DNA of 64,000 bases from Escherichia coli. GTDB lineage: Bacteria; Pseudomonadota; Gammaproteobacteria; Enterobacterales; Enterobacteriaceae. Location of the stretch: assembly GCF_002854065.1 (NCBI RefSeq), contig NZ_CP024153.1; one strand, 5' to 3'. Shown in pieces: positions 5,344-53,649 of this stretch (positions within the stretch are counted from its first letter, which is position 1; every line of letters begins with the position of its first letter). The position numbers and the translations under genes are program-made. The notes beneath the pieces are model-generated. The model searched no databases. It was not told where the DNA came from and saw nothing but the letters and a program-made list of their open reading frames with translations.

Positions 5344-6163
5344 GGCACTGTTGCAAATAGTCGGTGGTGATAAACTTATCATCCCCTTTTGCTGATGGAG
5401 CTGCACATGAACCCATTCAAAGGCCGGCATTTTCAGCGTGACATCATTCTGTGGGCCGTACGCTGGTACTGCAAATACGGCATCAGTTACCGTGAGCTGC
5501 AGGAGATGCTGGCTGAACGCGGAGTGAATGTCGATCACTCCACGATTTACCGCTGGGTTCAGCGTTATGCGCCTGAAATGGAAAAACGGCTGCGCTGGTA
5601 CTGGCGTAACCCTTCCGATCTTTGCCCGTGGCACATGGATGAAACCTACGTGAAGGTCAATGGCCGCTGGGCGTATCTGTACCGGGCCGTCGACAGCCGG
5701 GGCCGCACTGTCGATTTTTATCTCTCCTCCCGTCGTAACAGCAAAGCTGCATACCGGTTTCTGGGTAAAATCCTCAACAACGTGAAGAAGTGGCAGATCC
5801 CGCGATTCATCAACACGGATAAAGCGCCCGCCTATGGTCGCGCGCTTGCTCTGCTCAAACGCGAAGGCCGGTGCCCGTCTGACGTTGAACACCGACAGAT
5901 TAAGTACCGGAACAACGTGATTGAATGCGATCATGGCAAACTGAAACGGATAATCGGCGCCACGCTGGGATTTAAATCCATGAAGACGGCTTACGCCACC
6001 ATCAAAGGTATTGAGGTGATGCGTGCACTACGCAAAGGCCAGGCCTCAGCATTTTATTATGGTGATCCCCTGGGCGAAATGCGCCTGGTAAGCAGAGTTT
6101 TTGAAATGTAAGGCCTTTGAATAAGACAAAAGGCTGCCTCATCGCTAACTTTGCAACAGTGCC
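5344..6163 (+). mobile_element. IS26 copy 2
   Basis: Identical to copy 1 including terminal repeats. Confidence 0.95.
5389..6111 (+). CDS. tnpA: IS26 transposase Tnp26 (Gly184 form)
   Basis: Identical 240-aa ORF. Confidence 0.95.
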   Translation: MLMELHMNPFKGRHFQRDIILWAVRWYCKYGISYRELQEMLAERGVNVDHSTIYRWVQRYAPEMEKRLRWYWRNPSDLCPWHMDETYVKVNGRWAYLYRAVDSRGRTVDFYLSSRRNSKAAYRFLGKILNNVKKWQIPRFINTDKAPAYGRALALLKREGRCPSDVEHRQIKYRNNVIECDHGKLKRIIGATLGFKSMKTAYATIKGIEVMRALRKGQASAFYYGDPLGEMRLVSRVFEM

Positions 6164-6409
6164 GTCGATTGAAACACGGTGCATCTGATCGGACAGGGCG
6201 TCTAAGAGCGGCGCAATACGTCTGATCTCATCGGCCGGCGATACAGGCCTCGCGTCCGGATGGCTGGCGGCCGGTCCGACATCCACGACGTCTGATCCGA
6301 CTCGCAGCATTTCGATCGCCGCGGTGACAGCGCCGGCGGGGTCTAGCCGCCGGCTCTCATCGAAGAAGGAGTCCTCGGTGAGATTCAGAATGCCGAACAC
6401 CGTCACCAT
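6164..6409 (-). pseudogene. sul1: sul1 dihydropteroate synthase, first ~82 codons only; truncated by IS26
   Basis: [82 protein letters not shown] then IS26. Confidence 0.9.
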
Positions 6410-10768: not shown

Positions 10769-11588
10769 GGCACTGTTGCAAATAGTCGGTGGTGATAAAC
10801 TTATCATCCCCTTTTGCTGATGGAGCTGCACATGAACCCATTCAAAGGCCGGCATTTTCAGCGTGACATCATTCTGTGGGCCGTACGCTGGTACTGCAAA
10901 TACGGCATCAGTTACCGTGAGCTGCAGGAGATGCTGGCTGAACGCGGAGTGAATGTCGATCACTCCACGATTTACCGCTGGGTTCAGCGTTATGCGCCTG
11001 AAATGGAAAAACGGCTGCGCTGGTACTGGCGTAACCCTTCCGATCTTTGCCCGTGGCACATGGATGAAACCTACGTGAAGGTCAATGGCCGCTGGGCGTA
11101 TCTGTACCGGGCCGTCGACAGCCGGGGCCGCACTGTCGATTTTTATCTCTCCTCCCGTCGTAACAGCAAAGCTGCATACCGGTTTCTGGGTAAAATCCTC
11201 AACAACGTGAAGAAGTGGCAGATCCCGCGATTCATCAACACGGATAAAGCGCCCGCCTATGGTCGCGCGCTTGCTCTGCTCAAACGCGAAGGCCGGTGCC
11301 CGTCTGACGTTGAACACCGACAGATTAAGTACCGGAACAACGTGATTGAATGCGATCATGGCAAACTGAAACGGATAATCGGCGCCACGCTGGGATTTAA
11401 ATCCATGAAGACGGCTTACGCCACCATCAAAGGTATTGAGGTGATGCGTGCACTACGCAAAGGCCAGGCCTCAGCATTTTATTATGGTGATCCCCTGGGC
11501 GAAATGCGCCTGGTAAGCAGAGTTTTTGAAATGTAAGGCCTTTGAATAAGACAAAAGGCTGCCTCATCGCTAACTTTGCAACAGTGCC
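10769..11588 (+). mobile_element. IS26 copy 3
   Basis: 820 bp with both terminal repeats. Confidence 0.95.
10814..11536 (+). CDS. tnpA: IS26 transposase Tnp26 (Gly184 form)
   Basis: Identical 240-aa ORF. Confidence 0.95.
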   Translation: MLMELHMNPFKGRHFQRDIILWAVRWYCKYGISYRELQEMLAERGVNVDHSTIYRWVQRYAPEMEKRLRWYWRNPSDLCPWHMDETYVKVNGRWAYLYRAVDSRGRTVDFYLSSRRNSKAAYRFLGKILNNVKKWQIPRFINTDKAPAYGRALALLKREGRCPSDVEHRQIKYRNNVIECDHGKLKRIIGATLGFKSMKTAYATIKGIEVMRALRKGQASAFYYGDPLGEMRLVSRVFEM

Positions 11589-15552: not shown

Positions 15553-15648
15553 TGCCGGGATAGACTATTATTCTCCCCGGAGCCACTACGCTGACCCGGT
15601 TGATTTCAGAGGTAAGGGAAAAGGCGACGTTGCGCCTGTGGAACAAAC

Positions 15649-16470
15649 GGCACTGTTGCAAAGTTAGCGATGAGGCAGCCTTTTGTCTTATTCAAAGGCC
15701 TTACATTTCAAAAACTCTGCTTACCAGGCGCATTTCGCCCAGGGGATCACCATAATAAAATGCTGAGGCCTGGCCTTTGCGTAGTGCACGCATCACCTCA
15801 ATACCTTTGATGGTGGCGTAAGCCGTCTTCATGGATTTAAATCCCAGCGTGGCGTTGATTATCCGTTTCAGTTTGCCATGATCGCATTCAATCACGTTGT
15901 TCCGGTACTTAATCTGTCGGTGTTCAACGTCAGACGGGCACCGGCCTTCGCGTTTTGAGCAGAGCAAGCGCGCGACCATAGGCGGGCGCTTTATCCGTGT
16001 TGATGAATCGTGGGAATCTGCCACTTCTTCACGTTGTTGAGGATTTTACCCAGAAACCGGTATGCAGCTTTGCTGTTACGACGGGAGGAGAGATAAAAAT
16101 CGACAGTGCGGCCCCGGCTGTCGACGGCCCGGTACAGATACGCCCAGCGGCCATTGACCTTCACGTAGGTTTCATCCATGTGCCACGGGCAAAGATCGGA
16201 AGGGTTACGCCAGTACCAGCGCAGCCGTTTTTCCATTTCAGGCGCATAACGCTGAACCCAGCGGTAAATCGTGGAGTGATCGACATTCACTCCGCGTTCA
16301 GCCAGCATCTCCTGCAGCTCACGGTAACTGATGCCGTATTTGCAGTACCAGCGTACGGCCCACAGAATGATGTCACGCTGAAAATGCCGGCCTTTGAATG
16401 GGTTCATGTGCAGCTCCATCAGCAAAAGGGGATGATAAGTTTATCACCACCGACTATTTGCAACAGTGCC
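15649..16470 (-). mobile_element. IS26 copy 4 (822 bp; two 1-bp insertions)
   Basis: Both terminal repeats present; extra A at about 16010 (GGGAATCTG vs GGGATCTG) and extra T at about 15953 (GCGTTTTGAGC vs GCGTTTGAGC). Confidence 0.95.
15701..16425 (-). pseudogene. tnpA: IS26 tnpA disrupted by frameshift (split into 144-aa and 107-aa ORFs; Asn184 form)
   Basis: ORFs 15991-16425 and 15701-16024 together cover Tnp26 with a frame change between them. Confidence 0.85.
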
Positions 16471-19919: not shown

Positions 19920-20601
19920 TCAGACGGGATTTTGCTTATCAATTATTGAGAACAGAAATTTTCCTGAATCATCAATACTATACTTAGCAAGTAAAGGTGT
20001 TTTCTCATTTATCTGCTTGAGAGCAGGATCAAGGAAAGATCGTTTCAACTCTGCCAAGTTCTTCTGTTGGGATTCCGGCAAAAGGAAACGGTCATTTAAC
20101 CAAGCATGAGTAGTAACCCATAAGCCTGAAGATTTGAATTGAGCAAGACTTTCATAAAGGCGGATCGTCCGTGGATTTCGAAGACTGCCACAATCGCGGA
20201 GCGAGTAGGTGGTGAACTGGTTCGTCAGGCCGTAAATGTACCGCAGGAGTTTATGGTTAAATTCGATTTCCCAGATACCACGAGCTGATCGGCTGCCAGC
20301 CTCTGTTAGCCAGGGGCGCGCGACGCAGTCAAAACTCCCTTCTTTCGGGTAAAAGATTACCGCAGAACGGCTTAACTCAAACACGCCTTCTTTAACATCC
20401 TTGATAGCCTGGTTACGGCTTACCTGAAAAATTTGCTGATAGTCAGCCACCTTTACTTTGAAAGTAGAGTCACCGAGTACAGCCATCTCATCATCATCTT
20501 CGCTTACTGAAGCTGTGAAATACGTCTGCATAAGACATAACCAGAGAACGCGCTTTGCTTTTAGCGAGAGGTAGTAAGCAGCTTCGGTAAGCTCGTTAGA
20601 C
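19920..20601 (-). pseudogene. Rep_3-family (RepE-like) replication initiator, N-terminally truncated by IS26
   Basis: ...NELTEAAYYLSLKAKRVLWL...IRLYESLAQF... parallels recalled F RepE ([20 protein letters not shown]...MRLYESLCQY); first 17 residues of the ORF come from the IS26 end. Confidence 0.75.
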
Positions 20602-21421
20602 GGCACTGTTGCAAAGTTAGCGATGAGGCAGCCTTTTGTCTTATTCAAAGGCCTTACATTTCAAAAACTCTGCTTACCAGGCGCATTTCGCCCAGGGGAT
20701 CACCATAATAAAATGCTGAGGCCTGGCCTTTGCGTAGTGCACGCATCACCTCAATACCTTTGATGGTGGCGTAAGCCGTCTTCATGGATTTAAATCCCAG
20801 CGTGGCGTTGATTATCCGTTTCAGTTTGCCATGATCGCATTCAATCACGTTGTTCCGGTACTTAATCTGTCGGTGTTCAACGTCAGACGGGCACCGGCCT
20901 TCGCGTTTGAGCAGAGCAAGCGCGCGACCATAGGCGGGCGCTTTATCCGTGTTGATGAATCGTGGGATCTGCCACTTCTTCACGTTGTTGAGGATTTTAC
21001 CCAGAAACCGGTATGCAGCTTTGCTGTTACGACGGGAGGAGAGATAAAAATCGACAGTGCGGCCCCGGCTGTCGACGGCCCGGTACAGATACGCCCAGCG
21101 GCCATTGACCTTCACGTAGGTTTCATCCATGTGCCACGGGCAAAGATCGGAAGGGTTACGCCAGTACCAGCGCAGCCGTTTTTCCATTTCAGGCGCATAA
21201 CGCTGAACCCAGCGGTAAATCGTGGAGTGATCGACATTCACTCCGCGTTCAGCCAGCATCTCCTGCAGCTCACGGTAACTGATGCCGTATTTGCAGTACC
21301 AGCGTACGGCCCACAGAATGATGTCACGCTGAAAATGCCGGCCTTTGAATGGGTTCATGTGCAGCTCCATCAGCAAAAGGGGATGATAAGTTTATCACCA
21401 CCGACTATTTGCAACAGTGCC
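20602..21421 (-). mobile_element. IS26 copy 5 (variant: Asn184 plus one synonymous change)
   Basis: 820 bp; ...KLKRIINATLGFKS... Confidence 0.95.
20654..21376 (-). CDS. tnpA: IS26 transposase Tnp26 (Asn184 form)
   Basis: 240-aa ORF; GGC to AAC at codon 184 relative to copies 1-3. Confidence 0.95.
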   Translation of the reverse strand: MLMELHMNPFKGRHFQRDIILWAVRWYCKYGISYRELQEMLAERGVNVDHSTIYRWVQRYAPEMEKRLRWYWRNPSDLCPWHMDETYVKVNGRWAYLYRAVDSRGRTVDFYLSSRRNSKAAYRFLGKILNNVKKWQIPRFINTDKAPAYGRALALLKREGRCPSDVEHRQIKYRNNVIECDHGKLKRIINATLGFKSMKTAYATIKGIEVMRALRKGQASAFYYGDPLGEMRLVSRVFEM

Positions 21422-23183: not shown

Positions 23184-23325
23184 GGCACTGTTGCAAAGTT
23201 AGCGATGAGGCAGCCTTTTGTCTTATTCAAAGGCCTTACATTTCAAAAACTCTGCTTACCAGGCGCATTTCGCCCAGGGGATCACCATAATAAAATGCTG
23301 AGGCCTGGCCTTTGCGTAGTGCACG
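23184..23325 (-). mobile_element. IS26 fragment (142 bp of one end, internally truncated)
   Basis: GGCACTGTTGCAAAGTTAGCGATGAGG...GCGTAGTGCACG matches the IS26 end, then diverges. Confidence 0.9.
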
Positions 23326-27457: not shown

Positions 27458-28277
27458 GGCACTGTTGCAAATAGTCGGTGGTGATAAACTTATCATCCCC
27501 TTTTGCTGATGGAGCTGCACATGAACCCATTCAAAGGCCGGCATTTTCAGCGTGACATCATTCTGTGGGCCGTACGCTGGTACTGCAAATACGGCATCAG
27601 TTACCGTGAGCTGCAGGAGATGCTGGCTGAACGCGGAGTGAATGTCGATCACTCCACGATTTACCGCTGGGTTCAGCGTTATGCGCCTGAAATGGAAAAA
27701 CGGCTGCGCTGGTACTGGCGTAACCCTTCCGATCTTTGCCCGTGGCACATGGATGAAACCTACGTGAAGGTCAATGGCCGCTGGGCGTATCTGTACCGGG
27801 CCGTCGACAGCCGGGGCCGCACTGTCGATTTTTATCTCTCCTCCCGTCGTAACAGCAAAGCTGCATACCGGTTTCTGGGTAAAATCCTCAACAACGTGAA
27901 GAAGTGGCAGATCCCACGATTCATCAACACGGATAAAGCGCCCGCCTATGGTCGCGCGCTTGCTCTGCTCAAACGCGAAGGCCGGTGCCCGTCTGACGTT
28001 GAACACCGACAGATTAAGTACCGGAACAACGTGATTGAATGCGATCATGGCAAACTGAAACGGATAATCAACGCCACGCTGGGATTTAAATCCATGAAGA
28101 CGGCTTACGCCACCATCAAAGGTATTGAGGTGATGCGTGCACTACGCAAAGGCCAGGCCTCAGCATTTTATTATGGTGATCCCCTGGGCGAAATGCGCCT
28201 GGTAAGCAGAGTTTTTGAAATGTAAGGCCTTTGAATAAGACAAAAGGCTGCCTCATCGCTAACTTTGCAACAGTGCC
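27458..28277 (+). mobile_element. IS26 copy 6 (Asn184 variant); left arm of Tn6010-like oqx unit
   Basis: 820 bp with terminal repeats. Confidence 0.95.
27503..28225 (+). CDS. tnpA: IS26 transposase Tnp26 (Asn184 form)
   Basis: 240-aa ORF. Confidence 0.95.
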   Translation: MLMELHMNPFKGRHFQRDIILWAVRWYCKYGISYRELQEMLAERGVNVDHSTIYRWVQRYAPEMEKRLRWYWRNPSDLCPWHMDETYVKVNGRWAYLYRAVDSRGRTVDFYLSSRRNSKAAYRFLGKILNNVKKWQIPRFINTDKAPAYGRALALLKREGRCPSDVEHRQIKYRNNVIECDHGKLKRIINATLGFKSMKTAYATIKGIEVMRALRKGQASAFYYGDPLGEMRLVSRVFEM

Positions 28278-33473: not shown

Positions 33474-34293
33474 GGCACTGTTGCAAATAGTCGGTGGTGA
33501 TAAACTTATCATCCCCTTTTGCTGATGGAGCTGCACATGAACCCATTCAAAGGCCGGCATTTTCAGCGTGACATCATTCTGTGGGCCGTACGCTGGTACT
33601 GCAAATACGGCATCAGTTACCGTGAGCTGCAGGAGATGCTGGCTGAACGCGGAGTGAATGTCGATCACTCCACGATTTACCGCTGGGTTCAGCGTTATGC
33701 GCCTGAAATGGAAAAACGGCTGCGCTGGTACTGGCGTAACCCTTCCGATCTTTGCCCGTGGCACATGGATGAAACCTACGTGAAGGTCAATGGCCGCTGG
33801 GCGTATCTGTACCGGGCCGTCGACAGCCGGGGCCGCACTGTCGATTTTTATCTCTCCTCCCGTCGTAACAGCAAAGCTGCATACCGGTTTCTGGGTAAAA
33901 TCCTCAACAACGTGAAGAAGTGGCAGATCCCACGATTCATCAACACGGATAAAGCGCCCGCCTATGGTCGCGCGCTTGCTCTGCTCAAACGCGAAGGCCG
34001 GTGCCCGTCTGACGTTGAACACCGACAGATTAAGTACCGGAACAACGTGATTGAATGCGATCATGGCAAACTGAAACGGATAATCAACGCCACGCTGGGA
34101 TTTAAATCCATGAAGACGGCTTACGCCACCATCAAAGGTATTGAGGTGATGCGTGCACTACGCAAAGGCCAGGCCTCAGCATTTTATTATGGTGATCCCC
34201 TGGGCGAAATGCGCCTGGTAAGCAGAGTTTTTGAAATGTAAGGCCTTTGAATAAGACAAAAGGCTGCCTCATCGCTAACTTTGCAACAGTGCC
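33474..34293 (+). mobile_element. IS26 copy 7 (Asn184 variant); right arm of Tn6010-like oqx unit
   Basis: 820 bp with terminal repeats; same orientation as copy 6. Confidence 0.95.
33519..34241 (+). CDS. tnpA: IS26 transposase Tnp26 (Asn184 form)
   Basis: 240-aa ORF. Confidence 0.95.
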   Translation: MLMELHMNPFKGRHFQRDIILWAVRWYCKYGISYRELQEMLAERGVNVDHSTIYRWVQRYAPEMEKRLRWYWRNPSDLCPWHMDETYVKVNGRWAYLYRAVDSRGRTVDFYLSSRRNSKAAYRFLGKILNNVKKWQIPRFINTDKAPAYGRALALLKREGRCPSDVEHRQIKYRNNVIECDHGKLKRIINATLGFKSMKTAYATIKGIEVMRALRKGQASAFYYGDPLGEMRLVSRVFEM

Positions 34294-35115
34294 CTCCCGA
34301 TTAACTGGCAGATGACACGCCTCCTGAAAACCCCTAGCATACGCCGCAGTGTTCATGCTAACGGCGAATTCCAGTAAATGTATTCTACCGATGTCGTAAA
34401 AGAAAATGCTTACCTTTCAGCCACCCGCTCGGGGCTGGAATCGAACGAGATCGCTATCCTTCAGCGCTCTTTGCCTTCCCGCTTTAATCTTCGGCATTTG
34501 AAAAAAAATGAATCATTAAAACTCGTACTGCAAAAGAAAGCGGGAAAATCACGTGTAGTGGCTTATAAATTTACGTCCGGCTCATTTAATTACACGGCGT
34601 ATCGTATATCAGACAAAAAGTTCTATAATCTTTCCGATACTTCCGGGAAAGGCAGTCTCGATTATCCGTTACCAGCCACAGCAAGACTCAGTTCACCTTT
34701 CAATCCTGCAAGACTTAACCCGGTATCGGGAAAAGTGAGTCCCCATAATGGCATTGATTATTCCATGCCCATGAACACGAAAATAGTCAGCGTCATCGAC
34801 GGAAAAATCACCCGGGCCGAATACAACAGTACCATGGGATATTTTGTTGAAGTAACGGGAAAAGCCGGTGTTAAAACTCGCTATCTCCACCTCAATAAAA
34901 TACTCGTTACTAAAGGGGCCAGAGTTACCCGGGGAGGTGCTATTGCGTTATCCGGTAACAGCGGACGTTCATCCGGTCCTCATTTACATTATGAGCTGGT
35001 CATCAATAACAATCCTGTTAATTCACTGGCGTTCCGGGCATCGGCACCCGCTGATAACAAACTCGAACAGCATGCCTTTGCGCATGCCAGAGACTACGAA
35101 CGATACCTGGACTGA
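34294..35115 (+). pseudogene. M23-family metallopeptidase gene, 5'-truncated by IS26
   Basis: C-terminal ...PHNGIDYSMPMNTKIVSVIDGKI...GNSGRSSGPHLHYEL... M23 (LytM-type) signature; no native start (ORF begins in the IS26 end). Confidence 0.7.
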
Positions 35116-45006: not shown

Positions 45007-45687
45007 ATGAAAATATTGATCGTCGAAGACGAAATTAAAACAGGTGAATATCTCAGCAAAGGGCTTAGAGAGGCAGGGTTCGTAGTGGATCACGCTGATA
45101 ATGGTCTTACCGGATATCATCTCGCCATGACAGCCGAGTATGATTTAGTCATTCTGGATATCATGCTACCTGATGTGAACGGCTGGGATATCATCCGCAT
45201 GCTGCGCACTGCCGGAAAGGGTATGCCGGTCTTACTGCTGACAGCCCTCGGCACGATCGAACATAGGGTCAAAGGACTGGAACTGGGTGCGGACGATTAT
45301 CTGGTTAAACCCTTTGCGTTTGCCGAACTGCTCGCCCGGGTGAGAACCCTTCTGAGGCGGGGAAACACGATGATCACGGAAAGCCAGTTTAAGGTGGCTG
45401 ACCTCTCGATTGATCTCGTATCCAGAAAAGTCAGTCGCGCCGGAAACCGCATTGTGCTCACCAGTAAAGAGTTCAGCCTGCTGGAATTCTTCATTCGCCA
45501 TCAGGGAGAGGTTCTTCCCCGCTCCCTGATTGCCTCTCAGGTCTGGGACATGAATTTTGACAGCGACACTAATGCGATCGATGTCGCAGTAAAGCGACTC
45601 CGCGCTAAAATAGACAACGATTACGGGACAAAGCTGATCCAGACAGTCCGGGGCGTGGGCTACATGCTGGAGGTCCCGGATGCATAG
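45007..45687 (+). CDS. silR: SilR OmpR-family response regulator
   Basis: 226 aa [40 protein letters not shown]..., divergent from silC. Confidence 0.9.
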
Positions 45688-47155
45688 CAAACCTTCCAGA
45701 CGCCCTTTCTCACTCGCTCTGCGGCTGACCTTTTTTATCAGCCTGTCCACGATACTGGCTTTTATCGCCTTCACCTGGTTTATGCTGCATTCTGTTGAAA
45801 ATCATTTTGCCGAGCAGGATGTCAGCGATCTTCAACAAATCAGCACCACACTGAACCGTATACTGCAGTCCCCGGTGGATCCGGATGATAAAAAAATAAG
45901 CAAAATAAAGGAATCAATTGCCAGCTACCGCAACGTTGCCCTTTTGCTCCTCAATCCCAGGGGTGAAGTGCTCTTTAGCTCAGCTCAGGGGGCGGCACTA
46001 CGCCCGGCAGTGAATTCAGCAGATTTTAGCGAGCACAGCCGCGCACGGGATGTCTTTCTCTGGACGGTGGAGGATCCTGCGGGACCGATGGATACCGGGT
46101 CCGAAATGAAGATGGAAACATACAGGATTATCGCCTCCTCTGGTCAGGCGATATTTCAGGGCAAACAGCAGAACTATGTCATGCTGACTGGCCTATCCAT
46201 TAATTTCCATCTCCATTACCTCGATGCGCTGAAAAAGAACCTGATTGCGATTGCCGTCGTGATAAGCCTGTTGATTGTTCTGATCATTCGAATCGCTGTC
46301 CGTCAGGGGCACCTGCCCCTTCGTAATGTCAGCAATGCCATTAAAAACATCACCTCCGAGAATCTTGATGCGCGACTGGAACCGACACGCGTTCCCATTG
46401 AGCTGGAGCAACTGGTTATCTCGTTCAATCATATGATTGGAAAGATTGAGGATGTCTTTACCCGCCAGGCCAATTTCTCTGCCGATATCGCGCATGAGAT
46501 CAGAACGCCCATCACCAATCTGGTGACGCAGACTGAAATCGCACTGAGTCAGGATCGAACACAGAGGGAACTTGAGGATGTCCTCTATTCCAGTCTTGAA
46601 GAGTATAACCGGATGACCAAAATGGTCAGCGATATGCTGTTCCTGGCACAGGCAGATAATAATCAGCTGATACCTGACAGGGTCATGTTTGACCTCAGAG
46701 CGGAAGTCATGAAAGTCTTCGAGTTTTTCGAAGCCTGGGCCGAAGAACGCAATATCACGCTCAAATTTAACGGGATGCCCTGCCTGGTTGAGGGAGATCC
46801 ACAAATGTTCAGAAGGGCGATCAATAATCTGTTATCCAATGCCCTGCGTTATACCCCGGAGGGACAGGCAATCACCGTCTCAATAAGAGAGCAGGAGAGC
46901 TTTTTTGACCTTGTGATTGAAAATCCGGGGAAACCGATCCCTGAAGAACATTTATCAAGGCTGTTTGACCGTTTTTATCGGGTGGATCCATCCAGACAAC
47001 GAAAAGGAGAAGGCAGCGGCATCGGCCTTGCGATTGTGAAGTCAATCGTGGAAGCACATCACGGAAGAGTGCAGGTGGAATCAGACGTACGCTCCACGCG
47101 TTTTATCTTATCCGTGCCCAGACTGGAGAAAATGATCCCGGAAACCCAATGCTGA
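45680..47155 (+). CDS. silS: SilS sensor histidine kinase
   Basis: 491 aa with two TM segments, HAMP and HisKA/HATPase regions; overlaps silR by 8 bp. Confidence 0.9.
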
Positions 47156-47929: not shown

Positions 47930-48331
47930 TTGTCTGACTCAGCTACACTTAACCGGTACCTGTCTGAAAGGAATTATTATATGAAAATCAAAAACACCCT
48001 TTTTGTAATATTAATGTTATCCCTGCCAGCCATTTCTGCTGAACATTCGGAAATGAAAATGTCAGATATGCACTCATCGGCATCATCACAGGAATATATG
48101 GCTGGCATGAAAAATATGCATGAAAAAATGATGGCCGCCGTTAATGAATCCAATCCCGATAAGGCCTTTGCAAAAGGTATGATCGCACACCATGAAGGGG
48201 CAATCGCAATGGCTGAGACCGAGCTCAAATACGGAAAAGATCCCGAAATGAGAAAGCTTGCGCAGGACATCATTAAAGCTCAAAAAGGTGAAATTGAGCA
48301 GATGAATAAATGGCTTGACAGTCATAAATAA
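47930..48331 (+). CDS. DUF305-family periplasmic protein (metal-resistance associated); true start probably internal (about 47981)
   Basis: Signal peptide MKIKNTLFVILMLSLPAISA and ...GMIAHHEGAIAMAE... motif. Confidence 0.65.
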   Translation: MSDSATLNRYLSERNYYMKIKNTLFVILMLSLPAISAEHSEMKMSDMHSSASSQEYMAGMKNMHEKMMAAVNESNPDKAFAKGMIAHHEGAIAMAETELKYGKDPEMRKLAQDIIKAQKGEIEQMNKWLDSHK

Positions 48332-48404
48332 TGAACACTGGAGTGTTGTCTTGCGCACCCTCTTAGGGTACCCCCGGACACGAAAATATATAGCACTTAA
48401 CTAA

Positions 48405-48432
48405 TTAAAAACCCGAATAATTTCGGGTTTTT
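48405..48432 (+). terminator. Rho-independent terminator (AAACCCGAA/TTCGGGTTT stem plus T-run)
   Basis: Read directly. Confidence 0.6.
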
Positions 48433-48718
48433 AATGTAACTTTCTTTTCTGAACGGAAATAATAGTCATACAATTTAATTTTCTTGTAATTACTCCTACT
48501 TTTAATCAGGTACTGGACGATGGATAACGACTCCCGCCTGAGAGGGAAAATCCGTCTGGTTACCTGGCGCTATACTTAACCGATTGATCGACATGCCATG
48601 CTGGTAAAATATTAAAATCCTCCCCCATAAATCTGAACCACATGACAGGATTGATAGTCAGGCAGTATTTCACATTCATTGCTAAAAAAATAAAAATAAG
48701 CATGCATCTTCTCGAAGA

Positions 48719-49633
48719 TTAATTACCTTCCATCTTGTAAAAAAGAATCAAATCCTCTAATAATATCTCGATTCCCGCTTTTTTTAATACATCTTTCCGC
48801 TCGGCATATATTTTCCTCAACATATCTTCAAACCCCTTGCCAAGATGAATTTGTTTATGGCAGTTGCAACATAGTGATATGATATTCTCTTCCACATCCA
48901 GTGAATTCTCAAAATAGTCTTGCTTTGACATCGGGACAATGTGATGAGGTTCTGTGTAATTTAGAGGAGAGTTTCGCCTTCTGAACGTTGGATGGTCGCA
49001 ATTAATTTCACATTTATAATCAGCTTTGTTAAGCGCATTTTTTGAAACAGATTTACTTCTTGGGTATGAGAGTCCATTTTTGACTTCTATTGCAGCTTTC
49101 TTAGGTTTCGCTTTTTCGCTATACTCAAATGTCTGAGTAACGTCAAAGTGATTACTTTCTTCTAGAGCAGTGATCAAATCATTATCTGAGTAAAAATCAA
49201 TGCTTGAGCTTTCGTTCGTACTAAAAAAATCTAGTTCTTTTATTGCCTGAACAAGTTCTTCACGGATAGTCCATAAATTTCGCTTTGGGTTTCCTTTAAT
49301 TTCTCTACTTTTCATGACTGTAATGAATTTTGTCCCGGAAGCAATCTTTCCGACTCCTTTAACCTCGAATCGGCCAAGCTGCTTCTGAACTCTTCCACCC
49401 AACCCATTGATTACACCATTAGCACTCATACTGTGCAGGTCGTACTTCTTGCCGATATCGAAACATGTACAGGAATGGTCTGGCTCAATGAACCATTTTT
49501 TTAACGCTGCAATACTTTTGTCATCAAAAACTTTTTTATCCCTTAATAAAATCTTCCATTCTTCAACGCTAATATCTATATCACAGACGTATTCACCATC
49601 AATTACTTCACATATTTTTTCAATCATGTCCAT
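48719..49633 (-). CDS. HNH (His-Me finger) endonuclease-domain protein with uncharacterised ~200-aa N-terminal domain
   Basis: C-terminal YKCEINCDHP...EPHHIVPMS...SLCCNCHKQIHLG HNH/zinc-finger motifs; low-GC gene flanked by ~400-600 bp AT-rich non-coding DNA. Confidence 0.75.
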   Translation of the reverse strand: MDMIEKICEVIDGEYVCDIDISVEEWKILLRDKKVFDDKSIAALKKWFIEPDHSCTCFDIGKKYDLHSMSANGVINGLGGRVQKQLGRFEVKGVGKIASGTKFITVMKSREIKGNPKRNLWTIREELVQAIKELDFFSTNESSSIDFYSDNDLITALEESNHFDVTQTFEYSEKAKPKKAAIEVKNGLSYPRSKSVSKNALNKADYKCEINCDHPTFRRRNSPLNYTEPHHIVPMSKQDYFENSLDVEENIISLCCNCHKQIHLGKGFEDMLRKIYAERKDVLKKAGIEILLEDLILFYKMEGN

Positions 49634-50243
49634 AACTCTCTTGTAACACAGGCTTTGTAATAATGTAAAATCCGTTACACGGCGTTGTATGTAATGTCAT
49701 TGTCTCTTGGACTCCTACAGTCCAAAACAACTTTGTGTTTTGTTGTCCAAAAACTTTTTGTTGCAGTGAGTTCTCACTGAGATAAATCTCGCCTTGAGCG
49801 TATCACATCAGCAGACTTCCTCTCAACCTTATGGACTTAACCCGGTCATTCTTCACGACAAAGAAAGTACGGCATTTTACATGACGAAGAGACGGTCTCA
49901 GTTTCACATGACCGGATAACGTTTTTAATGTACTTCATTATTACGGCACGGGTGTTCAAAGAGTATTTTTAAATATTAATCATTTTGTTTAACGGGTGGA
50001 TACCTACAAATTTTAACATTTACTAATCAAGATAGCAGTTATACGTACTGTCCCGGCAAAAATCCTGAGGTTTACAGATTCCCTCACCGTAACAGACCCG
50101 GTCATTCCCCCTGGTCCTCCGGAGAGTCTAGTACGAGTGATAAACGTGAATTCCTGTACCTGAAGTTCAGCCGCTGGCAGATAAGTCGTGAACTATAATT
50201 ACATTCAGTCAGATCCAAACACCTTTTCATCTGCATATATACT

Positions 50244-51239
50244 TTGTACATACCAGGAGATTACATGCAGGCACCCGGTATACCGGAGAATGAAGAACAG
50301 AGGCTGAAGTCCCTGTATATTACCGGCCTTCTTGATACCCGTGACGATGAGCGTTTTGAACGCCTGACGCGGCTGGCCCGTAAAGCCTTTCAGGTCCCGG
50401 TGGCCCTGATAAGCCTGCTGGATCGCGAGCGCCAGTGGCTCCTCGCCTGCCAGGGCGTCGGCGTGCGCGAAACCCCGCGTAACATCTCGTTCTGCGGGCA
50501 TGCCATTCTGCAGGAGGGGCCCTTCATTGTTCACGACGCAGCTGCTGATGAGCGGTTCCGTGACAATCCCCTGGTCACCGGTGAGCCCCACATCCGGTTC
50601 TACGCCGGCCAGCCGGTGAGCCTGCCCGACGGCACGGTGGCCGGCACGCTGTGCCTGATCCACACCGTTCCCCGCGCCTTCACGGATGATGACATTGCGT
50701 CCCTCCGGGATCTGGCCTGTATCGTGGAAGACGAATTCGAGGCCATCAGCATGGCCATGACGGACAGCCTGACGGGCATTCCCAACCGGCGCGGGTTTTA
50801 CCGCGCCGGCGAAAAACTCTTCCGCGCGATGAACCGGCAGGATGCGTCGTTCAGCCTCATCTATTTCGATCTGGACAGGTTCAAACCGGTGAACGATCTC
50901 TGGGGGCACGCAGAGGGAGACGAGGTGCTGAAGGTTTTTGCCGGCTTTTTACATCAGCACCTCGAACCGGGCGAAATAGCAGGCCGCCTCGGCGGGGATG
51001 AGTTTGCCGCCCTGATCCGGCGAAACGGGAACACGAGTTCTTTTCTGCACGCGCTGAGTGCCAGTTTGGATCATTACAATGACACCTCGGGCAAGCCCTA
51101 CAACATCAATTATTCCTTTGGCGAACTGATCAATAACGCAGACCAGTACGCGACGCTGGCGGAAATGATCGGCAAATGTGACGAAGTGATGTACCTGAAG
51201 AAAAAACGAAAGACCCTGTCGCGGAAAGCAGAACCGTGA
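50244..51239 (+). CDS. GAF-domain diguanylate cyclase (GGDEF)
   Basis: N-terminal GAF-like region; C-terminal ...RLGGDEFAAL... GGDEF active-site motif. Confidence 0.85.
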   Translation: MYIPGDYMQAPGIPENEEQRLKSLYITGLLDTRDDERFERLTRLARKAFQVPVALISLLDRERQWLLACQGVGVRETPRNISFCGHAILQEGPFIVHDAAADERFRDNPLVTGEPHIRFYAGQPVSLPDGTVAGTLCLIHTVPRAFTDDDIASLRDLACIVEDEFEAISMAMTDSLTGIPNRRGFYRAGEKLFRAMNRQDASFSLIYFDLDRFKPVNDLWGHAEGDEVLKVFAGFLHQHLEPGEIAGRLGGDEFAALIRRNGNTSSFLHALSASLDHYNDTSGKPYNINYSFGELINNADQYATLAEMIGKCDEVMYLKKKRKTLSRKAEP

Positions 51240-52169: not shown

Positions 52170-52841
52170 ATGGCTGACTGGTTTATTGCGACTGAGGGCG
52201 TGAAGGTGGTGAAGGACAGTGCCAGCCTGTGGCCGCAGATCGTTACGGCTATTTCCTCTGCCGGCGCAGCCCTGGTGGGTGTTGCTCTCACACACCGTTT
52301 TACCCGCAGGCGTGAAGAAGCTACTGCTGCACGTAAACGTTACGATGAATTGTACTTTATATCTACCGAGCTAGTTTTTCTGCTGGAGCGTTTTGCACAA
52401 CGCTGTGTTTATTCTGCTAATGAATCAGGGGAATATGACCAAGATGGACGTATTAGGATTGAGTATTCTTTACCTGAAATCAATTTCGAGTCCATTACTG
52501 GGGACTGGCGTTCTCTGCCACCAGGATTGATGTACAGACTTGCTGAATTGCCAGTCATCTGCAGGGAAGCCGCGAGTTCTATAAGTGCGGCGTTCAATGA
52601 AGATACTCCCTTCGATGGATCGTATGGAATTTTCGAACTTAACAGGCAGTCTGCAAGACTCGGATTAAAAGCAATACGTTTATCCCGTTGGCTACGTCAG
52701 CTATGCGATATGCCTGGGGACAGGTTGTCTGACGACCGTTGGTCGGCATGGAGTGTTTTGTATCGGAAGCGCTGGGAGCATATTAGGAATAATAACAATG
52801 TTCACCGCCGATATAAACGGTTGCCTGATGTTACTGAGTAG
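52170..52841 (+). CDS. Hypothetical membrane-anchored protein (223 aa, one N-terminal TM helix)
   Basis: RBS (AGGA) upstream; hydrophobic segment LWPQIVTAISSAGAALVGVAL; ends 19 bp before the recombinase gene. Confidence 0.55.
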   Translation: MADWFIATEGVKVVKDSASLWPQIVTAISSAGAALVGVALTHRFTRRREEATAARKRYDELYFISTELVFLLERFAQRCVYSANESGEYDQDGRIRIEYSLPEINFESITGDWRSLPPGLMYRLAELPVICREAASSISAAFNEDTPFDGSYGIFELNRQSARLGLKAIRLSRWLRQLCDMPGDRLSDDRWSAWSVLYRKRWEHIRNNNNVHRRYKRLPDVTE

Positions 52842-52860: not shown

Positions 52861-53649
52861 ATGAATAATAATTTCCCGGCAGGTATCAGGGATAACACAC
52901 GGAACACCTCGATGAATCTGCCAGTAGCCATCGATTACCCTGCCGCTCTCGCCCTGCGTCAGATGGCGCTCGTGCAGGATGAACTCCCGAAATACCTGCT
53001 GGCGCCGGAAGTCAGCGCCCTGCTCCATTACGTGCCGGATCTTCACCGCAAGATGCTGCTGGCGACGCTGTGGAACACCGGCGCGCGCATTAATGAAGCG
53101 CTCGCGCTGACCCGGGGGGATTTTTCGCTGGCGCCGCCGTATCCTTTCGTGCAGCTGGCCACGCTCAAGCAGCGCACCGAGAAAGCGGCCAGGACGGCAG
53201 GTCGTGCCCCCGCAGGCAGTCAGGTCCATCGTCTGGTTCCCCTTTCCGATCACCACTACGTCAGTCAGCTGCAGATGATGGTGGCCACCCTGAAAATTCC
53301 CCTCGAAAGACGAAACAAACGCACCGGCAGAATGGAGAAGGCGCGTATCTGGGAGATCACAGACCGAACCGTCCGCACCTGGCTTAGCGAAGCGGTGGAA
53401 GCCGCAGCGGCCGACGGGGTGACGTTCTCAGTACCGGTGACCCCCCATACGTTCCGTCACTCCTACGCGATGCACATGCTGTATGCCGGCATACCACTGA
53501 AGGTTTTGCAGAGCCTGATGGGCCACAAATCGATTAGCTCGACGGAAGTCTATACGAAGGTGTTTGCACTTGATGTTGCTGCGCGGCATCGAGTTCAGTT
53601 TCAGATGCCCGAAGCGGATGCGGTAGCCATGCTGAAAGGGAATATTTAA
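52861..53649 (+). CDS. Tyrosine site-specific recombinase (phage-integrase/XerD-like, possibly ResD-type resolvase)
   Basis: C-terminal ...HTFRHSYAMHML...GHKSISSTEVYTKV... catalytic R-H-R-Y signature. Confidence 0.85.
   Translation: MNNNFPAGIRDNTRNTSMNLPVAIDYPAALALRQMALVQDELPKYLLAPEVSALLHYVPDLHRKMLLATLWNTGARINEALALTRGDFSLAPPYPFVQLATLKQRTEKAARTAGRAPAGSQVHRLVPLSDHHYVSQLQMMVATLKIPLERRNKRTGRMEKARIWEITDRTVRTWLSEAVEAAAADGVTFSVPVTPHTFRHSYAMHMLYAGIPLKVLQSLMGHKSISSTEVYTKVFALDVAARHRVQFQMPEADAVAMLKGNI

Follow-up and report, generated by a model that had tools for sequence, protein, structure and literature searches.

A putative stand-alone type IV restriction endonuclease of winged-helix-HNH architecture beside the sil copper/silver module of enterobacterial plasmids

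Enzymes in which a winged helix is joined to an HNH nuclease are a described class of type IV restriction endonucleases, represented by SruGXI, HhiV4I/HHPV4I and HtuIII and including proteins of PUA-winged-helix-HNH organization; approximately 10% of the winged-helix fusions bear a DpnI-type motif, and the specificities of the remainder are unknown (Helbrecht et al. 2024, PMC11037411). Other HNH endonucleases, such as TagI, ScoA3IV and TbiR51I, carry an SRA domain (PMC6212794, PMC4333417). The DNA specificity of McrBC systems resides in the N-terminal module of McrB, small modular domains being the rule (PMC11090510). The present analysis concerns an HNH gene located at the silE end of a sil copper/silver resistance module in a 64,000-nucleotide stretch of Escherichia coli DNA (contig NZ_CP024153.1, assembly GCF_002854065.1), the whole of which is referred to here as the window. 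This gene probably encodes a single-chain, stand-alone type IV (modification-dependent) restriction endonuclease of the winged-helix-HNH type. That reading was favoured because the N-terminal domain also heads McrB proteins that are paired with McrC, the C-terminal half shares 52% identity with that of an SRA-HNH protein, and the gene stands alone. An earlier examination of the sequence alone (the original prediction) had offered a type IV-like nuclease, an abortive-infection effector and a plasmid-addiction nuclease as plausible; the first is now preferred, and the other two found no specific support, since there was no partner or antitoxin gene and the flanks were not conserved.

The open reading frame (ORF) is intact and reaches an upstream ATG at position 49633, which gives a protein of 304 amino acids (48719-49633, minus strand, in the ORF list); residues are numbered on this version throughout. 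The gene most likely starts at the second ATG, at 49627, and would then encode 302 amino acids. This codon appears better spaced from an upstream GAGAG than the ATG at 49633, and it is the start used in nearly all homologues and in RefSeq (the 909-bp version, WP_001372261.1, 'HNH endonuclease'), where the protein begins MIEK. The gene and its parts are as follows.

48719..49627, minus strand: coding sequence of the HNH protein, 302 amino acids from the methionine codon at 49627, with the stop codon at 48719-48721.
49229..49627, minus strand: N-terminal domain (predicted reader), residues 3-135, comprising a β-hairpin (residues 4-17) and then a winged helix.
49064..49228, minus strand: variable linker, residues 136-190, modelled in part with low confidence.
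48722..49063, minus strand: McrA-type HNH (ββα-metal) nuclease domain and C-terminal helical tail, residues 191-304.

The nuclease half was readily identified. Residues 211-263 matched the Pfam HNH family (PF01844; E 2e-5), and residues 189-278 aligned with EcoKMcrA (PDB 6ghc; E 3e-6), with the paired histidines, the asparagine, the CxxCH motif and the last histidine all retained. The predicted model places a β-β-α unit at residues 227-264, and H230, H231, N250, C208, H214, C255, C258, H259 and H263 were invariant in 37 sequences. C208, H214, C255 and C258 are probable zinc ligands; C208 and the CxxC pair line up with the cysteine pairs of EcoKMcrA, and the second ligand appears, by conservation only, to be His214 instead of a cysteine. 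Both hallmarks of the HNH superfamily, the motif and the structural zinc site, were therefore found in the window protein. When the full protein was searched, Pfam, NCBIfam and PADLOC gave matches at the level of the HNH domain only. A single NCBIfam match, to IscB, scored 15.8 bits against a cutoff of 175 and was dismissed as noise. The linker and HNH region together (residues 150-299) matched, with 52% identity over 151 residues, the end of P0072, a 432-amino-acid protein with an SRA domain in its middle, and several further relatives of the C-terminal half also bear SRA (PF18491).

The N-terminal region had been described in the original prediction as some 200 residues of unrecognised sequence. 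No Pfam family was matched at E≤0.1 by residues 1-138 of the window protein or of 22 relatives, and to that extent the description stood, but the region really consists of a folded domain of about 135 residues and a variable linker of about 55. When modelled alone the domain gave a predicted local distance difference test (pLDDT) score of 88.9 and a predicted template modelling (pTM) score of 0.85. Its elements in the model are, in order, a β-hairpin, two helices, a strand, a helix, a long helix and a β-wing formed by strands 107-112 and 118-123, so that the predicted fold is a winged helix in which the long helix (residues 68-86) is likely to be the recognition helix. The SRA, EVE, PUA and YTH folds that had been suggested for the reader were not found in the window protein; specifically, Pfam gave no match to SRA (PF18491/PF02182) in the window protein or in 23 N-terminal domains, and there was no sign of a base-flipping PUA-like pocket. 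Nor was the domain of the homing-endonuclease or colicin type, either of which had been named at the outset as a finding that would count against the prediction. A search of the PDB with a sequence profile of the domain returned nothing significant, and no solved structure is close. Three cysteines of the β-hairpin and of the first winged-helix strand, C8, C17 and C57 (with H53 and H67; approximately 49460-49612), are invariant within the full-length family and might together make up a small site, with a metal or a disulfide, by which the hairpin is fastened to the domain. Relatives of 36% identity have neither C8 nor C17, and they also have no hairpin.

The two halves are joined by a linker for which pLDDT fell below 60 over residues 140-170. 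Linker identity between alleles was 21-70%, compared to 62-90% for the flanking domains. The ratio of nonsynonymous to synonymous substitution rates (dN/dS) between alleles was approximately 0.08 overall, with values of 0.03-0.07 for the N-terminal domain, 0.05-0.18 for the HNH domain and 0.2-0.4 for the linker. These estimates span a deep divergence, with dS values of 0.7-2.2 between alleles and above 1 for every comparison that involved the window allele. Because both domains are conserved, the linker is free to vary and dN/dS is low, the sequences point to a working two-domain protein and not to a remnant.

To place the N-terminal domain, a hidden Markov model (HMM) built from it was run against 1.84 billion cluster representatives with a cut-off of E≤1e-3. 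There were 329 matching representatives, with E values down to 1e-26. Among the best 150 of these 329, the domain was joined to a McrB-type AAA+ GTPase in 64 and to an HNH domain of the window type in 22; the remainder comprised 41 proteins of fewer than 200 amino acids and 23 with other partners. The NCBIfam McrB model was matched by eight of ten sampled long proteins, and both of the McrB genes that were checked in their contigs were followed by mcrC. Residues 3-131 of the window protein were 40% identical to one of these McrB N-termini. Further fusion partners of the domain included PD-T4-1-like nuclease regions and an EVE domain. Consistent with the HMM results, a Foldseek search of AFDB50 found this fold N-terminally in HNH endonucleases, in McrB-like ATPases and in proteins annotated as 'restriction endonucleases', with matches across Bacteria and Archaea and with Methanosarcina and Dictyobacter among the sources of the HNH proteins. 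Since the N-terminal module of McrB is a specificity domain, and since both halves of the window protein are shared with type IV systems, the protein can be described as a McrB-type reader attached to an SRA-HNH-type cutter. It is thus a nuclease fused to a separate domain of a kind that other type IV systems use.

The gene also lacks a cognate methyltransferase, as do type IV systems. Over 20 kb to each side of the gene, identical plasmids had none annotated, PLSDB annotation being incomplete, and neither a methyltransferase next to the HNH gene nor any conserved partner was seen in 12 contexts examined. A type III restriction-modification methyltransferase does occur in an E. coli island (L014), more than 7.8 kb away and past IS66 and Rpn genes. 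A 36% relative with an extra N-terminal region (P0063) is encoded directly downstream of a type I hsdMSR system; this arrangement is the usual clustering of restriction systems and not a cognate pair. The intact reading frame, the absence of a nearby methyltransferase and a GC content well below that of the surroundings (0.360 for the coding sequence compared to 0.504 for sil and 0.590 for the adjacent GGDEF gene) had all been noted in the original prediction and were borne out.

In a type IV enzyme of this architecture, the winged helix and β-hairpin (residues 3-135) would bind double-stranded DNA bearing a base modification foreign to the host, and the flexible linker of about 55 residues would position the McrA-type HNH domain (residues 191-304), which would have little sequence preference itself and would nick or cut nearby, at a distance from the mark. 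Such a scheme is general among modification-dependent enzymes that work independently of nucleoside triphosphates, the winged-helix-HNH enzymes of Helbrecht et al. (PMC11037411) included. Dimer formation and a preference for Mn2+/Co2+/Ni2+ are both probable by analogy with relatives. A methyltransferase would not be needed: host DNA that is unmodified, or methylated only by Dam or Dcm, would not be a substrate. Because the hosts are Dam+ Dcm+, the target is probably something other than Dam or Dcm methylation. The gene would then serve in defence or immigration control, with an anti-phage or anti-plasmid phenotype, where the sil copper/silver module of enterobacterial plasmids gives way to fast-changing defence genes.

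Several observations weigh against this interpretation. Winged helices also bind unmodified DNA, as in FokI and transcription factors, and some McrB-family systems, for example LlaJI, are methyltransferase-associated and sequence-specific. Sharing of the N-terminal domain is not proof of modification dependence, since winged helices also read unmodified DNA. The PADLOC match was to mREase_IV, a profile of McrA length, and it covered the HNH portion alone. No convincing promoter was found for the gene, and promoter-like sites in the upstream flank were no commoner than in shuffled sequence; the AT-rich locus could be silenced transcriptionally in enterobacteria. The copper/silver neighbourhood of all proteobacterial alleles is not itself explained by a purely defensive role. 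Literature searches found no experimental evidence on the window protein or close homologues, and those made with the protein accession and with sil plus HNH returned irrelevant word matches only. Finally, the described winged-helix-HNH enzymes (PMC11037411), most of which are haloarchaeal, sense Dam-type G6mATC, with toxicity to E. coli that is Dam+, the kind of host in which the window gene resides.

The surroundings of the gene in the window comprise the following features.

47981..48331, plus strand: CopM/DUF305 metallochaperone gene, the last of the sil module, with silE upstream (NCBIfam CopM, E 1.6e-35; RefSeq).
48332..48718: downstream non-coding flank, 387 bp, GC 0.382.
48404..48435: inverted repeat, perfect over 14 bp and with A/T runs on its sides, directly after the CopM/DUF305 gene.
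49628..50264: upstream non-coding flank, 637 bp, GC 0.402, common to the HNH gene and the divergent GGDEF gene.
50265..51239, plus strand, divergent: GGDEF sensor diguanylate cyclase gene (NCBIfam GGDEF; RefSeq start).
52170..52841, plus strand: gene for a 223-amino-acid 'hypothetical' protein, a homologue of the PADLOC candidate defence family PDC-S67 (E 8e-28).
52861-53649: tyrosine integrase gene, immediately downstream of the PDC-S67 homologue.

Scans of the flanks for repeats, promoters, terminators and Rfam families yielded only the hairpin at 48404-48435. Read from its sequence it is a putative terminator; a simple terminator scan did not call it. The upstream flank presumably holds the promoter. 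No Rfam family reached threshold in the flanks, and the lone match, to the rimP leader, was rejected (25 bits against a gathering score of 47). Neither flank contained a conserved small ORF that might be an immunity or antitoxin gene, only short unconserved ORFs being present upstream, and the flanks of different alleles showed no similarity beyond 48435 on the downstream side and none upstream. The GGDEF gene begins in RefSeq at the ATG at 50265, compared to the TTG at 50244 in the mechanical ORF call; it is specific to the lineage of the window and is not a conserved partner. The HNH gene, the GGDEF gene, a 98-amino-acid ORF, the PDC-S67 homologue and the integrase gene look like a small defence/integration module on the silE end. 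EAL and GGDEF genes also precede a 61% homologue in a CP4-57-like island (L023, 4653-7915). A link to GGDEF proteins through this locus was rejected as a probable coincidence, the two GGDEF proteins sharing their generic catalytic domain only (39% identity over 85 amino acids).

The HNH gene had been thought to occupy the place where pco would normally follow sil, which is wrong. In plasmid pKPN-498 the order is pcoABCDRSE, a gene for a small copper-resistance protein, M23 peptidase, DUF2933, silP and so on to silCRS and silE; pco therefore adjoins the silP end, and the HNH gene lies at the other end, that of silE. At the silP end of sil in the window, a copy of the insertion sequence IS26 (33474-34293) directly adjoins the M23 peptidase gene (34378-35115), and pco was most likely removed by IS26 activity at this junction. 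Seven full IS26 copies are present in the window, the others being located at 1981-2800, 5344-6164, 10769-11588, 15648-16470, 20601-21421 and 27458-28277, together with a 142-bp fragment at 23184-23325.

Alleles with 83, 81, 80 and 75% amino acid identity to the window protein fill the same slot beside DUF305 and silE in other islands, and copper/silver genes adjoin every proteobacterial allele that was examined (100, 83, 81, 80, 75 and 74% identity). The last of these lies in the Aeromonas chromosome CP077378 (L005, 9130-17294; also L006 and L007), between cueP and a four-gene RND cluster, in a block bracketed by insertion sequences. The Aeromonas pump is only 30% identical to SilA, so this is a second, unrelated setting in which the nuclease is tied to copper/metal genes, here non-orthologous ones. 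That these neighbours are the same ancestral sil block was rejected on that identity and since the adjacent 124-amino-acid protein has no homology to DUF305. The neighbours on the non-sil side differ from island to island.

75% allele: Gabija (GajA/GajB).
Enterobacter and K. oxytoca islands: TrlF/Ppl-like (PHP-)ATPase.
Enterobacter island, additionally: TIR, KAP NTPase and CBASS (SMODS and S_4TM).
E. coli islands: type III restriction-modification, Rpn, or CP4-type island genes.
Loci with these exchanged neighbours: L002-L004, 1-9446; L017, 4837-7458; L024, 1-2504; L014, 1-3174.

The silE-distal border of the island is a hotspot for defence genes, and the HNH gene, placed at its edge, follows the pattern of a defence gene. 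Outside these islands, a homologue in Clostridium zeae adjoins NERD, MNT/HEPN, PLD-helicase and AAA_5 genes, and other homologues in Firmicute-type contexts are found among ordinary genes. No copper/silver efflux neighbours were present at the homologues examined in Firmicute-type contexts (approximately 60% identity) and in other non-sil contexts, including the island-borne P0020.

The 1,904-bp islet that carries the gene was present in 1,085 PLSDB plasmid records, including 758 from Klebsiella, 154 from Escherichia, 67 from Enterobacter and 23 from Salmonella, and was at least 99% identical in 945 of them. Among 5,426 complete E. coli genomes it was found in 126 (2.3%), where 125 of the 127 matching places were on plasmids. 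By comparison, the silP end was found in more than 2,500 plasmid records, and pKPN-498 is a sil plasmid that does not carry the HNH gene.

The history of the slot differs from that of the module beside it. In the same pairs of islands (L002, L013 and L017), dS was 0.10-0.26 for silS (45680-47155) and 1.2-1.5 for the adjacent HNH gene; the HNH slot is decoupled from sil, through allele replacement or a much faster clock. In the Enterobacter island a 93.5% nucleotide match (blastn) ends at 48435, the end of the hairpin, and beyond this point only the coding sequence can be aligned, at 80%. All alleles, that of Aeromonas included, keep a GC content of approximately 0.36 and a third-position GC content of approximately 0.33, and full-length homologues of about 60% identity occur in Clostridium and Neobacillus, making a low-GC reservoir a plausible source of the gene. 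The recent foreign acquisition that the original prediction had suggested is not supported, given an islet that is at least 99% identical in 945 plasmids and same-slot alleles with saturated dS values of 1.2-1.5. The composition is foreign, but the association with sil is old or has been repeatedly renewed.

The allele pattern could also fit a different kind of enzyme, namely a modification-independent nuclease specific for a sequence or structure, either selfish and homing-like or used in competition between plasmids, with a winged helix that would read a sequence that its own replicon and host either lack or protect. Alleles are homologous in the coding sequence only, amid unrelated surroundings; the fixed DUF305/silE slot, with a dS 5-10 times that of sil, could represent repeated re-insertion at a preferred site; and unmodified sequence is commonly read by winged helices. 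However, such an enzyme is unlikely. A tblastn search of 50,697 phage records found no homologue, and neither an intron or intein nor a duplicated target site was present. Homing genes go through a cycle of decay, in contrast to the strong purifying selection seen here over a deep divergence; it is mainly in McrB/McrC systems that the reader domain recurs; and site avoidance would be required in Klebsiella, Aeromonas and Clostridium alike without a methyltransferase. An HNH homing endonuclease in the strict sense was rejected, as the phage records yielded no relative and the gene is intergenic, on plasmids and chromosomes, and interrupts no host gene. A colicin- or pyocin-type DNase was likewise rejected; the flanks hold no immunity-gene candidate, and the N-terminus is a predicted winged helix of 135 amino acids, not a translocation domain.

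That the protein is an abortive-infection or toxin effector is improbable. The HNH domain would then be a non-specific DNase that is held off by the N-terminal domain and linker and freed by a phage cue other than modification, with death of the infected cell. A lone nuclease gene without a methyltransferase in defence-island surroundings fits this proposal, as does the auto-inhibition by a linker that is known in related EVE-HNH enzymes, according to work cited in PMC11037411. Yet the gene has neither an antitoxin nor a sensor as a partner, none of the small ORFs in the flanks is conserved, and in place of signalling or sensor domains the protein has a predicted DNA-binding fold, at the position that the DNA reader holds in McrBC.

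A role within the copper/silver island, as a DNA-binding regulator, a metal-stress nuclease or a maintenance or recombination factor for sil, was considered very improbable. It would account for the copper/silver genes next to all proteobacterial alleles examined, including the Aeromonas island with CueP and the RND pump, but not for the homologues in Firmicute contexts and P0020, which have no such efflux neighbours. It is also opposed by pKPN-498, by the difference between about 1,085 records with the islet and more than 2,500 with the silP end, by the position of the gene past the putative terminator, which suggests separate transcription, and by the membership of both protein modules in restriction systems. 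That the gene is silent, or a decaying remnant of no present use, is hardly credible: the locus is AT-rich, possibly silenced and has no identified promoter, but more than 940 plasmids carry an intact ORF, none of the catalytic and zinc-binding residues varies, and the selection analysis (dN/dS of 0.08 with saturated dS) led to its rejection.

A more specific proposal can be put forward tentatively, that the N-terminal β-hairpin and winged helix are a new family of DNA-modification readers, whose mark would be neither Dam 6mA nor Dcm 5mC but one for which no winged-helix reader is yet known. Candidate marks would include hydroxymethyl- or glucosyl-cytosine, 4mC, 7-deazaguanine and other phage hypermodifications. 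The module is common to the window enzyme, at least 64 McrB GTPase clusters and the PD-T4-1-like nucleases. Were this proposal true, an unnoticed restriction activity would be carried on more than 1,000 multidrug and metal resistance plasmids of Klebsiella, E. coli, Salmonella and Enterobacter. The reader domain offers a tractable way into uncharacterised McrBC systems with the same module: its ligand, once found, would assign a specificity to all of them and could yield a new reagent for the mapping of a DNA modification. If active, the gene would influence which phages and incoming plasmids become established in bacteria that carry sil plasmids, which bears on the epidemiology of plasmids as well as on the use of phages as therapy against Klebsiella and E. 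coli. At this locus, moreover, defence genes can be seen to pile up at a fixed border of a resistance island and to turn over much faster than its cargo.

Compared to the known systems, the window protein resembles the winged-helix-HNH enzymes most closely in organization, with a predicted N-terminal winged helix, a C-terminal McrA-like HNH domain and a stand-alone gene without a methyltransferase. This likeness is one of fold and domain order. The size class is also similar, with 224-283 amino acids in the described enzymes and 302 in the window protein, which has an extra N-terminal β-hairpin with the conserved Cys8 and Cys17. Unlike them, the window gene is resident in Dam+ Dcm+ enterobacteria, so that its specificity must differ from that for Dam methylation or the gene must be silenced. 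Toxicity dependent on Dam was not evident from its distribution, since an intact, selected gene is carried by Dam+ Enterobacterales on 1,085 plasmids, where silencing is possible.

With EcoKMcrA only the HNH part of the protein is shared (residues 189-278); the N-terminal domain is a predicted winged helix and not the NEco domain that binds 5mC and 5hmC in the EcoKMcrA family. ScoMcrA (5zmm) has SBD and SRA domains, neither of which was found by Pfam in the window protein. The SRA-HNH endonucleases have a closely related linker and HNH module and differ in the reader. The McrBC systems with non-canonical N-terminal domains (PMC11090510) have a reader of the same family, but the window protein has neither their GTPase motor nor McrC; the fused HNH domain would do the cutting, and translocation driven by nucleoside triphosphates (NTPs) is not expected. 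The type of enzyme has already been described, as winged-helix-HNH, and the version in the window has so far been annotated only as 'HNH endonuclease'.

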